64,000 nucleotides of DNA from Candidatus Moraniibacteriota bacterium (lineage in GTDB: Bacteria; Patescibacteriota; Minisyncoccia; Moranbacterales; UBA9337), in NCBI GenBank assembly GCA_028695135.1, contig JAQVJM010000001.1:13718-77717 (forward strand). Direction: 5' to 3'. A program made the translations under genes and the position numbers. Below, piece by piece: positions 18,708 through 43,032 of the stretch. Below the pieces are notes generated by a model. It was given only the letters and a program-made list of their open reading frames with translations. It did no database searches and had not been told where the DNA came from. Every line of letters begins with the position of its first letter. The stretch's first letter is position 1.

Positions 18708-19193
18708 ATGGAAGAAGAAAAGATAAAGCCTACGAAAAAAGGAGGAAAAAATATGACTATCATATCCGTAGCTATTGTTGCAATTTTAGCAGTAATATTT
18801 TTCCTGATTAAAAGCGCTAAAGATGAATTCGATTCCATCGATATGGATATGACGAGCGATAACCTCGTCGAGAATGTCGAAAGTCTCGGCCAAGATGAGA
18901 AAGATGCGGAGGAAAACATTGAAGAGTTCGATATTTCCGCCAAGCCTTTTGAATTTTCCATCAAGGAGATCCGAGTCAAAAAGGGTGATAAGGTAAGAAT
19001 AAATCTTTCCATAGAATCCGGAATCCATGATTGGGTAATCGATGATTTTTCTTCCGCCACGAGCCAGCTTTCGGCAGGGCAGTCCGGCTTTGTCGAATTT
19101 ATTGCTGACAAAACAGGCGTTTTCGAGTATTATTGCAGTGTGGGAAACCACCGGCAATTGGGCATGGTTGGAAAATTAATCGTGGAAGAATAA
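18708..19193 (+). CDS. Membrane-anchored cupredoxin (type-1 blue copper) domain protein
   Basis: N-terminal TM helix; C-terminal ...GIHDW...YYCSVGNHRQLGMVGKLIV with His/Cys/His/Met copper ligand spacing. Confidence 0.65.
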   Translation: MEEEKIKPTKKGGKNMTIISVAIVAILAVIFFLIKSAKDEFDSIDMDMTSDNLVENVESLGQDEKDAEENIEEFDISAKPFEFSIKEIRVKKGDKVRINLSIESGIHDWVIDDFSSATSQLSAGQSGFVEFIADKTGVFEYYCSVGNHRQLGMVGKLIVEE

Positions 19194-38775: not shown

Positions 38776-40962
38776 TCATAGCCTTTTTCTTTTTAAAAGA
38801 AGAGAATTGGTCACTACTGAAACACTGCTCATTGCCATTGCCAAGCCGGCGAATTCCGCTTGCAATAAGCCGAAAGCGGCTATAGGGATTCCGATACTGT
38901 TATAAAAGAGTGCCCAGAAAAGATTTTGCTTAATTTTTTGCATAGTTTCCTTGCTGAGTTTTATTGACTTGGCGACATCTCTGGCATCATTTTTAACCAA
39001 CACGATATTTCCGGATTCGATTGCAATATCGGCTCCTTTGCCCATAGCAATTCCTACATCAGCTTGGGCCAGAGCGGGTGCGTCGTTTATGCCGTCTCCG
39101 ACCATGGCTACTATGGAAGTTTTTTGAATTTCCTTTATTTTTGATACTTTCTCTTCCGGAAGCACTTCGGAAATTACTCTTTTAATTTCCAGTTTCCTTC
39201 CGATAGCTTCAGCGGTGCGCCTGTTATCTCCGGTAAGCATCACGGATTCTATTCCCATGGCAGACAGTATTTTAATTGCGCTCTTGCTGCTTTCCTTGAT
39301 CTGATCACTTATCGCTATTATGCCGATGATATTGCCATTTTCGGCGCACAGCACTGCCGTCTTCCCTTCTTCTTCAAGGGATAATTTTTTCCCTTTGATA
39401 TTTTCAGATATGTCAATTGAATTATCCCGCATGAAATTTTCCGTTCCGATCAGTATTTTATTGTCGTTCAAAAATCCCTCTATGCCATGTCCCGGAGATG
39501 TTCTAAATCCCTGGGCATTTTCTAAGGATAATTTTTTTTCTTTGGCTTTATTTATAATAGCCTCTGCAAGCGGATGCTCGGATCTATTTTCTATAGAAGC
39601 TGATTTTCTGAGAATATTTTCTTCAGAATAACCTTCGAAAGATATGATATCAACTACCTCAGGGAAGCCTTTGGTCAGGGTACCGGTTTTATCGAAAACA
39701 ACGGTTTTGATTTTATTGGATATTTCAAGAGTTGCGCCATCGCGGATCAAAATTCCATTTTCAGCTCCTTTGCCAGTTCCGACAATGATGGCAGTGGGGG
39801 TGGCTAGTCCGAGAGCGCAAGGACATGCGATTACAAGAACTGCTGTAAAGGTGAGAAGGGCGGTTACAAAACTTGATCCTATAAAGAAGTACCAGACGAT
39901 AAAAGTTATAATCGCGATTACAATAACCGCCGGCACGAAATAGCCGGATATCTTATCTGCATATTTTTGGATAGGGGCTTTGGATCCTTGAGCTTCCTCG
40001 ACAAACTTGATAATTTGAGAAAGAATCGTATCTTTTCCAACCTTGGTGACCTCAAATTTAAAAGACCCGGTCTTATTTATCGTAGCGCCTATGACCGAAT
40101 CTCCGGCTTTTTTTTCCACAGGAATACTTTCTCCGGAGATCATAGATTCATCAATGCTTGAATGGCCTTCGATTATTTTTCCGTCCGCAGGTATTTTTTC
40201 TCCTGGGCGGACTATTACCATATCTCCCGGAGCGACCTCATCTAGCGGAATATCTATTTCTTCCCCATCTTTTTCTACCCGGGCGGTTTTGGCCTGAAGT
40301 CCCATTAGCTTTTTGATAGCGTCTCCCGCTTTTCCTTTGGCGCGAGCTTCAAGCCACTTCCCCAAAACTACGAAAGTAATAAGCAGAGCCGATGTCTCAT
40401 AGAAAACCTCTCCTTCGATCAAATAAGTCGTAGCTAAACTATAAAAGTAGGCGGCGCTTGTTCCGACAGCGATAAGGGTATCCATATTGGCGGTCTTATT
40501 CCTTAGTCCTATCCAGGTTCCTTTGTAAAATCGAAGGCCGATATAGAATTGGACTATCCCGGCAAGGACTGATTGCAAAACCTTGCTTTCAAATGACATA
40601 TTGTGAAAAATCATAGTCAAAAGAAGAATGGGAAATGATAAAAACAGACTGATTATGAACGTCAGCCTTTCTTTTTTTATTTCCGTTTCTGAACTTTTTG
40701 CGTGATGTGCATGGTTATGATCGCTTTCGGGATAAGCTTCATATCCTGCTTTCTTGACAGCCGATAAGACGGCTTTTGAATCTCTCTCGTTATTATATTC
40801 AACTGAAAGTTTTTCCGAAGCAAGATTCACATCGGCTTTCTTTATTTGAGGAAGCTTTTTCAGCTTATCTTCTATGGTAAAAACGCAGGAAGCGCAATGC
40901 ATTCCTTTTATAGAAAAAACTTCTTTGTCCTTCTTGTTTTTCATGATGATGTCTTTTGTCAT
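38776..40962 (-). CDS. copA: Copper-translocating P1B-type ATPase
   Basis: N-terminal HMA (GMHCASCV), CPC motif ([11 protein letters not shown]), DKTGTLT phosphorylation site, GDGINDAP; 728 aa. Confidence 0.93.
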
Positions 40963-41065
40963 AAGCGGGCAATTCTTATCGGAAGAATTATTATTGGAAA
41001 ATAATCCTGTTTTATTTATGTTTAGTTATACAATTACGCGGTTGCGGGATTATGCAACTATTAAA

Positions 41066-41106
41066 CCTTTGCCTACAACGGTGTTGGGTGCCCGTTGCAG
41101 GCAAAG
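41066..41106 (-). repeat. Hairpin 1 of three tandem covarying hairpins (conserved core caacggtgttgggtgcccgttgc)
   Basis: cctttgcctacaacgg-tgttgggtg-cccgttgcaggcaaag; the A.C mismatch on + becomes a G.U wobble on the minus-strand transcript. Confidence 0.7.
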
Positions 41107-41121
41107 ATTTAATATTATTCC

Positions 41122-41165
41122 GTCCCTATCTGCAACGGTGTTGGGTGCCCGTTGCAGATAGGGAC
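41122..41165 (-). repeat. Hairpin 2 of three tandem covarying hairpins (perfect 17-bp stem)
   Basis: gtccctatctgcaacgg-tgttgggtgc-ccgttgcagatagggac; the outer stem sequence differs from hairpins 1 and 3 but is fully compensated. Confidence 0.75.
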
Positions 41166-41238
41166 GTCTGATTTCAATAAGTCATTTTATATAACCAGAC
41201 GTCTTTTGTCTCCGAATAAAATGCTTATTATCAGATCC

Positions 41239-41274
41239 TTGCCTACAACGGTGTTGGGTGCCCGTTGCAGGCAG
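41239..41274 (-). repeat. Hairpin 3 of three tandem covarying hairpins
   Basis: ttgcctacaacgg-tgttgggtgc-ccgttgcaggcag; begins ~16 nt after the stop codon of the upstream (minus-strand) gene. Confidence 0.7.
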
Positions 41275-41289
41275 AAATCCGATAATTTT

Positions 41290-42687
41290 TTATTCGACGA
41301 CCTCTATGGTTCCCGAGACCATTCCCATCCAACAGCTGAATTTGAACTTTCCCGCCTGGGTTGGCAAGAACTCTTTTATGCTGGTTTCTCCCGGAGTCAG
41401 ATTTATCTGTCCGTTGAACAAATTTCTGGATATTATTGCGTTTGTGCATCCGCTGGTTCCCCTGTCTTCAATCCGCCATTCAACCGGTATGTTTTTCCTG
41501 ACTTTTATATAATTGGGAGAATATCCGGAAGATGTGGCTGTTGTTTTGACTATCTGCTTCCCGTTTTCTATCAAAGGGAGTCCATCTATATCTCTCAGGG
41601 CGCTCTTGCCTGATTTCTGGCTTAATCCCGGCTCTTCCTTTTGATTTTTTGCCAGATCGCTTGCGCTTGTAAATCCTAAAGCATTCAATTGGGAATTTAT
41701 ATTGAATAAAGCGAAAAAAACTATCAGAATTCCGGCGGTTTTTGAAAAAATCAAAGCGGTATTGTGGCTGCTTATAAATTTTACGCTGGTCAGTCCTATG
41801 AGGAGAAGGGAAGGGAGCGTGCCGATGGCGAACATGAGCATGATAAGGCCTCCTGATATGAAACTTCCCGATAGCAGAGCGAATCCTTGAGCGGTTATGG
41901 TGAATCCGCAAGGCAGAAAAAAAGTCAGCGCGCCTATGAGAAAGGGGGATCTATTTTTTTTGTTCTGCGGAGCGCCGAAAATTTTATCTGTTGCGGATTT
42001 GGGCAGAGCGATCCTTATTTTTTTAAGCTGTTTGATCCCGATCATTTGAAATCCGATGATTAACATTGCCGCTGAAACGATGAAGACCAGTATTGACGAA
42101 AAAGCGGGCGAAAGGGTGAATTTTTCTCCTATCGATCCAAGCATTCCTCCCAATAAAGCATAAGAAAACAATCTTCCGGAGTTGAATAATATTTGGGGCC
42201 TGATCCTTCTGAAATATTTTTTTTCATCTGAATAATCCTCGTCCCATTTCTTCGACAAGGAAAGGACTAGTCCTCCTACCAGAGCCGCGCAGCTGGATAT
42301 GCCGGCAACCAGCCCGAGAAACAGAAAGGCTGTCAAAGGAGATGCGGGGGACGCTTGCGCGATATTTGTGATTTCCGATTTATCCAGCAGGAAAAAAGCT
42401 GTTATCAATAAGGCGGAAATCAAAAAACTGATCGCAGTGCCTGAGGATTTTCCTTCTGTGCCAGGCTTATTTTCCGATAATCTGTAGTTGTTATTCCTCA
42501 AGGCCTTGTTAATTTCCGGAATGTTTATTTTATTTTTATATTGAATGGTGACTGAATTTTTTTTCTGTGAAACATCGGCAGAGCAAATATTGGGGATCTT
42601 TTCAAGCTCGTTCTTTATGATCAGTTCGCAGGAAGAACAACGCATCCCATCAATATATAATATTTTAGTTTTCATCGTTTGCCGCAA
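41290..42687 (-). CDS. HMA-domain / DsbD-like transmembrane / C-terminal cupredoxin-like fusion protein (putative copper handling)
   Basis: N-terminal MRCSSCE HMA motif; membrane core with GISSCAAL and FFLPCGFT Cys-containing helices; C-terminal beta-rich domain ending FKFSCWMGMVSGTIEV. Confidence 0.5.
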   Translation of the reverse strand: MRQTMKTKILYIDGMRCSSCELIIKNELEKIPNICSADVSQKKNSVTIQYKNKINIPEINKALRNNNYRLSENKPGTEGKSSGTAISFLISALLITAFFLLDKSEITNIAQASPASPLTAFLFLGLVAGISSCAALVGGLVLSLSKKWDEDYSDEKKYFRRIRPQILFNSGRLFSYALLGGMLGSIGEKFTLSPAFSSILVFIVSAAMLIIGFQMIGIKQLKKIRIALPKSATDKIFGAPQNKKNRSPFLIGALTFFLPCGFTITAQGFALLSGSFISGGLIMLMFAIGTLPSLLLIGLTSVKFISSHNTALIFSKTAGILIVFFALFNINSQLNALGFTSASDLAKNQKEEPGLSQKSGKSALRDIDGLPLIENGKQIVKTTATSSGYSPNYIKVRKNIPVEWRIEDRGTSGCTNAIISRNLFNGQINLTPGETSIKEFLPTQAGKFKFSCWMGMVSGTIEVVE

Positions 42688-42950
42688 ATCCTTATTACTT
42701 TTAAAAGTTCCTTTATTTTTTCTTTCTTGACTCTTTTGCCGGGTTTATCGATAGCTTCCAAGAAACAACCGTTAAGATGACCTTCCATGATCATCCGGTG
42801 AGCCGATTTTAACAGTCCGATTACGGCCAAGTTCTGAGTCATTATGTCGACGCAGTATCTATCTTCTTCTATCATCTTGATTATATTGTTTATCTGCCCG
42901 CGCGCTTTTTTAAAGCTGACAAGGGACTGTTTCTTTTTTGCGTTAGCCAT
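42672..42950 (-). CDS. csoR: CsoR/RcnR-family metal-sensing transcriptional repressor
   Basis: 92 aa; ...ARGQINNIIKMIEEDRYCVDIMTQ...H...EGHLNGC matches DUF156/CsoR architecture (Cys/His ligands); overlaps the downstream gene by 16 nt. Confidence 0.65.
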   Translation of the reverse strand: MANAKKKQSLVSFKKARGQINNIIKMIEEDRYCVDIMTQNLAVIGLLKSAHRMIMEGHLNGCFLEAIDKPGKRVKKEKIKELLKVIRICGKR

Positions 42951-42974: not shown

Positions 42975-43032
42975 CCAACATCCCCCCCTGGGGGTTGTGT
43001 GATGATAATATCATAATAAAAATTTTTGTCAA
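42975..43032 (-). promoter_or_regulatory. csoR promoter (minus strand TTGACA-16-TATTAT) with GC-rich pseudo-palindromic operator aacccccagggggggatgtt
   Basis: RC of 43027-43032 = TTGACA; RC of 43005-43010 = TATTAT; palindrome 42975-42998 lies between the -10 box and the start codon. Confidence 0.55.

Follow-up and report, generated by a model that had tools for sequence, protein, structure and literature searches.

What does a membrane protein that carries a CopZ-like domain at one end and a cupredoxin domain at the other do between a copper-sensing repressor and a copper pump? The question is raised by three genes (csoR, a middle gene, and copA) in the 64-kb stretch of DNA analyzed here, hereafter the window. 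An earlier note on this DNA had proposed that they form an operon and that the middle gene encodes a membrane protein for the relay or sequestration of copper. The operon was confirmed, and relay or sequestration remains the best reading of the middle protein, one that we infer from its domains, its ligands, and its neighbors.

Organization of the Locus

Open reading frames in the window place all three genes on the minus strand, with copA falling outside the interval that the earlier note had assigned to the operon (41290-42950). The repressor gene csoR (42672-42950) encodes a 92-aa member of the CsoR/RcnR family of copper-sensing repressors and matches the Pfam family Trns_repr_metal (PF02583; E 2.3e-22); its best match in NCBIfam is RicR, with a score under the RicR cutoff. 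The translation has the CsoR ligand pattern C33-H58-C62. The Cys, His, and Cys are separated by 25 and 4 residues, a spacing equal to that of the Mycobacterium tuberculosis CsoR ligands, which we take to be C36, H61, and C65. At the other end of the operon, copA (38776-40962) encodes a 728-aa Cu(I)-exporting ATPase of the P1B-1 type that has a single HMA domain near its N terminus (GMHCASC; residues 15-75). The protein scores 635.6 bits against TIGR01511 (cutoff 397) and 677.5 bits against TIGR01525, matches E1-E2_ATPase, Hydrolase, and HMA in Pfam, and its translation carries CPC, YN, MxxSS, and DKTGT motifs. Cupredoxin_1 was not matched in CopA in the Pfam search.

The middle gene has two candidate starts, an ATG (41290-42675; 461 aa) and a TTG (41290-42687; 465 aa). 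The ATG is the likely start because it overlaps the csoR stop codon as ATGA and because a database protein that is 100% identical to the middle protein (P0001) is 461 aa in length. The overlap suggests that csoR and the middle gene may be translationally coupled. That the middle gene is a chance open reading frame or a pseudogene is ruled out by 2551 homologues at E ≤ 1e-5.

A predicted promoter and an operator-like site precede csoR. The top of the promoter scan is a predicted sigma-70-like promoter (TTGACA-16-TATTAT with a TG extension; 43005-43032, minus strand) that matches at 11 of 12 positions. Eleven nucleotides past its -10 hexamer is a G/C-tract palindrome, CCCCCAGGGGGGG (42982-42994, minus strand), that resembles CsoR operators, and we regard it as a putative operator behind a predicted strong promoter. 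The related locus L081 has CCCCCATAGGGGG at the equivalent place. Among 48 related loci, 42 have a comparable palindrome (TACC(C)-N-(G)GGTA, or a C-tract paired with a G-tract) in the 100 nt that precede csoR, as compared with 5.5% of background windows. The looser TACC...GGTA pattern was used in this survey because the strict C4...G4 pattern matched few loci (5 of 46). The locus has the features expected of a CsoR-regulated cop operon: a CsoR with Cys-His-Cys ligands, a promoter with an operator-like palindrome, and a Cu(I) ATPase of the P1B-1 type.

A covarying RNA hairpin is present in three copies on the minus strand of the spacer that separates the middle gene from copA (41229-41284, 41121-41166, and 41061-41112), the second of which is an inverted repeat with perfectly complementary arms of 18 nt. 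Scanning the spacer against Rfam at E ≤ 1 yielded only sub-threshold look-alikes of microRNA and snoRNA hairpins. Across the whole window, Rfam had no match at gathering scores and ARAGORN found zero tRNAs. A scan of related loci for the loop plus stem identified the hairpin in L081 only. A 22-nt part of the hairpin core (stem end and loop) was unmatched in 80 loci, and the exact 25-mer was absent from the metagenome contigs searched. The 21 matches to a degenerate 18-base pattern, all without the 5' arm, were rejected as chance. In many loci, the gaps between the middle gene and copA hold Cys-rich C-terminal tails or extra genes.

Domains, Ligands, and Topology of the Middle Protein

Pfam identified the three families that the earlier note had named, HMA (residues 10-68; E 1.3e-8), DsbD_2 (residues 121-327; E 3.9e-33), and Cupredoxin_1 (residues 375-461; E 9.7e-9), and no fused thioredoxin-like domain. 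The refuting outcome named at the time, a core or C-terminal domain of unrelated families without metal ligands, was not what the searches returned: both fall in families whose chemistry involves metals or thiols. The N-terminal domain (42484-42660, minus strand; GMRCSSC) has the ferredoxin-like HMA fold with its MxCxxC motif. In fold, GMxCxxC motif, operon position, and CsoR control, it resembles CopZ/Atx1 and the csoR-copZ-copA operons of Bacillota. CopZ, however, is soluble, whereas the HMA domain here is fused to a polytopic, seven-helix membrane protein and some related loci have a separate HMA segment in addition; a stand-alone, small soluble form is found only in split homologues. The HMA domain is followed by an extra helix, TM0 (42379-42444, minus strand; residues about 82-103, or helix 78-99 in the 461-aa numbering according to hydropathy and the structural model), that links the predicted cytoplasmic HMA domain to the outside-facing start of the core.

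The core (41707-42327, minus strand) is a six-helix domain related to CcdA and DsbD (PF13386) with Cys133 in TM1 (GISSCAAL), Pro-Cys260-Gly in TM4 (FFLPCGFT), and Met283 in TM5. Homologues of the middle protein also match DsbD_TM (PF02683; about 1e-10 to 1e-11). Searching with an HMM profile of the core found no solved structure by sequence. The core shares with CcdA, DsbD, and ScsB (DsbD family, TC 5.A.1, LysE superfamily) a 3+3 arrangement of helices and one cysteine each at the breaks in TM1 and TM4; ScsB also has a link to copper tolerance (PMC3322552). In the middle protein, the core has metal binders (HMA and CupA-like) on its flanks instead of redox domains of the thioredoxin or Ig-like kind.

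The C-terminal domain (41305-41568, minus strand; about residues 374-461) has the Greek-key beta-sandwich fold of cupredoxins and is specifically CupA-like, with predicted roles in Cu(I) binding and transfer. It matches CupA both by fold and by sequence, in that Cys414 and Cys452-W-Met454-G-Met456 (FSCWMGM) align with all four ligands of the CupA-type motif (as defined in PMC5552934). Its closest counterparts are Streptococcus pneumoniae CupA (PDB 4F2E/2MRY), whose fold is that of a proven Cu(I) chaperone with the same ligands, and the cupredoxin-type metal-binding domain of the CopA of that species (4F2F). The arrangements differ. CupA faces the cytoplasm on a single N-terminal anchor helix, whereas here the domain is C-terminal to seven helices and predicted to be outside, and the CopA encoded here has an HMA domain instead of a cupredoxin metal-binding domain.

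The candidate ligands are conserved at all three levels. In an alignment of 121 sequences, C17, C20, C133, C260, C414, C452, M454, and M456 are 99-100% conserved, in agreement with the intramembrane cysteines and C-x-M-x-M motif noted before. In a cross-phylum alignment of eight sequences, with homologues from Bacillota, Chloroflexota, and Actinomycetota at 24-30% identity, C133, P-C260-G, M283, C414, and C452-x-M-G-M are invariant, and the invariant residues of the core hold across four phyla. Conservation of Met208 and Met215 is lost beyond the close family in the same alignment. A structure prediction, as proposed by the earlier note, was obtained with AlphaFold2 and has seven helices, six of them in the core (pLDDT 78, pTM 0.71), with breaks at the TM1 and TM4 cysteines. 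Across the 121 sequences, the mean number of Lys and Arg residues is ∼11.4 in the three loops predicted to be inside versus 2.0 in loops predicted to be outside. The seven predicted helices and the positive-inside rule give good support for a predicted cytoplasmic HMA domain and extracytoplasmic CupA-like domain.

A second membrane cupredoxin that had been reported at 18708-19193 does exist, but is of a different kind. It is a membrane-anchored protein of the plastocyanin/azurin type (PF00127; E 1.2e-7) with spaced His, Cys, His, and Met as expected of a blue-copper site, and it adjoins an FAD/Rieske oxidoreductase.

Distribution and Genomic Context of the Family

Relatives of the middle protein are encoded in at least 561 species genomes, mostly of Patescibacteria, and 852 clusters (50% identity) match at E ≤ 1e-30. 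The middle gene had been called atypical, a description that does not hold, as the order csoR-X-copA is conserved and recurs in hundreds of genomes of Patescibacteria and other bacteria. Within 5 kb downstream, 54 of 59 loci have copA on the same strand, and csoR is upstream in 45 of 69 loci; repressors of the CopY/BlaI type are present in 10 loci. P-type ATPase genes adjoin the homologue in Acetoanaerobium, Chlorohelix, Tsukamurella, and Streptomyces. CupA, by comparison, is described as limited to streptococci and lactobacilli (PMC7558416; PMC5552934). A literature search on this architecture (DsbD_2/PF13386/PF13473, CupA-like or DsbD-like copper proteins, and Patescibacteria) found no paper.

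The modules are not always joined. Actinomycetota and Chloroflexota have split versions, in which a gene for the membrane core and cupredoxin domain is followed by a separate small HMA gene, beside P-type ATPase genes. The actinobacterial split homologues are without TM0 and begin directly at TM1, and their separate CopZ-like gene is signal-less; the split homologue of Chlorohelix retains an N-terminal hydrophobic stretch without an HMA domain. Other homologues have two HMA domains, two cupredoxin domains, or Cys-rich tails. We count such variation in modules, which is like that of metal pumps, in favor of a role in metal handling. An extra HMA segment is present in 22 of 80 related loci, mostly between the middle gene and copA, and some of these segments are likely separate copZ-like genes. 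The proposal that the fusion stands in place of a soluble chaperone thus fits the window, which has no free copZ, but not the family as a whole, given these extra segments and the soluble HMA gene of the split versions.

A Proposed Cu(I) Relay

The middle protein is best explained as a member of an uncharacterized, widespread family with pairs of soft-metal ligands positioned at three heights in the membrane, and it probably helps to move or hold toxic copper there. Most likely, it either passes Cu(I) across the membrane through a relay of thiolates or acts together with CopA as an outer trap for Cu(I) that is supplied with reductant. Our main reading, to which we give a probability of about 45%, is that csoR, the middle gene, and copA form, probably in a genome of the Patescibacteria (CPR), a copper-detoxification operon under predicted CsoR control, in which the middle protein is the Cu(I) relay partner of CopA.

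In the proposed relay, Cu(I) would release CsoR from the operator, and the middle protein would be made together with CopA. The HMA domain would capture Cu(I) in the cytoplasm via Cys17 and Cys20 and may also supply the HMA domain of CopA. By ligand exchange, Cu(I) would pass to the intramembrane pair of Cys133 and Cys260, with alternating access as in CcdA and with the invariant Met283 in the core. It would then reach the outer CupA-like domain, in which a binuclear set of ligands (Cys414, Cys452, Met454, and Met456) would hold it off the membrane or release it. We infer both that copper rather than electrons passes through the core and that the direction is outward. The DsbD family belongs to the LysE superfamily beside metal-ion exporters, and roles in mercury and copper resistance have been reported (PMC4608589). 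A bolder proposal, which we offer tentatively and hold as possible but somewhat doubtful, is that a CcdA/DsbD-type scaffold has been repurposed as an ATP-independent, thiolate-relay exporter of Cu(I) and that in the Candidate Phyla Radiation it serves CopA as its standard partner in copper defense.

Some considerations count against a Cu(I) relay. All characterized relatives of the core (DsbD, CcdA, and ScsB) carry electrons, not metal ions. The list of invariant residues includes no conserved acidic residues in the helices that would suggest ion coupling. Last, a second route looks redundant when CopA is already exporting Cu(I).

Alternative Explanations

In the strongest alternative, electrons move instead of copper. 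A core like those of CcdA, DsbD, and ScsB would transfer cytoplasmic reducing equivalents to the CupA-like domain outside, where Cys414 and Cys452 would be kept reduced, or Cu(II) would be reduced, to trap copper expelled by CopA. The CxxC of the HMA domain would be the entry point for electrons or a copper-sensing regulatory domain. We consider this explanation unlikely, though it deserves serious weight. The core is homologous to DsbD_TM and CcdA, down to the cysteines at breaks in TM1 and TM4, and ScsB, one of the electron carriers that make up the characterized family, provides copper tolerance by such a route (PMC3322552; PMC4608589). Three pairs of cysteines at three levels recall the path from thioredoxin to DsbD-beta to DsbD-gamma/alpha. 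The bis-thiolate site of CupA is also reported to reduce Cu(II) in vitro (PMC7558416), and such a site exposed outside the cell would require re-reduction. Conversely, DsbD-type proteins use thioredoxin folds as redox partners, a role that HMA domains are not known to play, and the neighborhood of the gene in 80 loci has no conserved partner of the thioredoxin or TlpA kind, although a distant or cytoplasmic thioredoxin may serve as donor. On actinomycete plasmids, separate genes for CcdA and for TlpA or peroxiredoxin coexist beside the homologue of the middle gene, suggesting that the latter has a distinct job. The motif PCxxP, which we take to be typical around the transmembrane cysteines of CcdA, is only half kept here (SSC in TM1 and LPCG in TM4). 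The invariant Met in TM5 and the variable numbers of HMA and cupredoxin domains also fit metal handling better.

It is improbable, in our assessment, that nothing passes through the core. The HMA domain would then be a tethered CopZ that feeds CopA, the CupA-like domain would bind the Cu(I) that CopA releases at the surface, and the core, which may dock onto CopA, would serve mainly as an anchor or scaffold. This arrangement would account for the tight linkage of the gene to copA across phyla and the lack of a free copZ in the window. It would also conform to the usual pairing of chaperone and pump, as the HMA fold matches that of the N-terminal domain of CopA, and has a precedent in CupA, a membrane-tethered chaperone (PMC7558416). 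For anchoring, however, one helix is enough, as in CupA. Strict invariance of Cys133, Pro-Cys260-Gly, and Met283 despite identities of 24-30% argues for a chemically active core, and the 22 of 80 loci with extra HMA segments, some likely copZ-like genes, have them alongside the fusion.

Transport could instead run inward. The outer domain would take Cu(I), Ag(I), or Hg(II) and pass it via the cysteine pair to the cytoplasmic HMA domain, as in MerP-MerT-MerA, or the system would supply surface cuproproteins such as that at 18708-19193. Formally, an outer binder, a transmembrane cysteine pair, and a cytoplasmic HMA domain equate to the mer uptake chain. The logic is like that of MerP-MerT and MerTP fusions, with an outer metal binder, a transmembrane cysteine pair, and a cytoplasmic acceptor with a cysteine pair, but the two systems have unrelated membrane folds and place the HMA domain on opposite sides, and mercury reduction contrasts with copper export here. 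The weak MerTP/MerP match in NCBIfam covers only the HMA domain and scores far under the cutoff (35.6 bits versus 180 for MerTP). A split pair directly precedes merA on a Tsukamurella plasmid, and the genome studied here encodes an extracytoplasmic blue-copper protein. Nevertheless, import of copper would be counterproductive for a gene co-regulated with a Cu(I) exporter under copper-derepressed CsoR or CopY. In addition, merA is absent from the operon in the window, no merA-like cluster is among the 14 most widespread neighbor clusters listed for 80 related loci, and Met-rich sites of the CupA type are suited to Cu(I). Inward transport or cuproprotein supply is, in our assessment, a poor prospect.

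Export of sulfite or organosulfonates, with a fortuitous position in a cop operon, is very improbable: although databases and source annotations label the family a "sulfite exporter TauE/SafE family protein", domain searches contradict the label, with no TauE match in Pfam for this protein (E ≤ 0.1) or seven longer homologues (E ≤ 0.01) and matches to DsbD_2/DsbD_TM instead, and neither the fused HMA and CupA-like domains nor the cop context is connected to sulfite.

Implications for Copper Defense

In models of bacterial copper export, P-type ATPases are fed by soluble or single-helix chaperones such as CopZ and CupA, and diderms additionally have RND systems. The family described here joins the two known chaperone folds to a membrane core that bears cysteines, and has a CupA-type site on what is predicted to be the outer face. 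If Cu(I) is moved, the family would represent a new mechanism of transport, built on a scaffold that has been regarded as carrying electrons only. If electrons are moved, it would represent a new branch of the DsbD family that is dedicated to an extracellular copper trap. In both cases, the CupA fold is widespread despite its description as confined to streptococci and lactobacilli, and the "sulfite exporter TauE/SafE" label that is spreading through databases is misleading. Homologues are present in culturable hosts (Acetoanaerobium noterae, Streptomyces mirabilis, and Tsukamurella), making the question directly testable. Whichever is moved, the family would be a main and unstudied component of copper defense in Patescibacteria, which make up a large share of uncultured bacteria.

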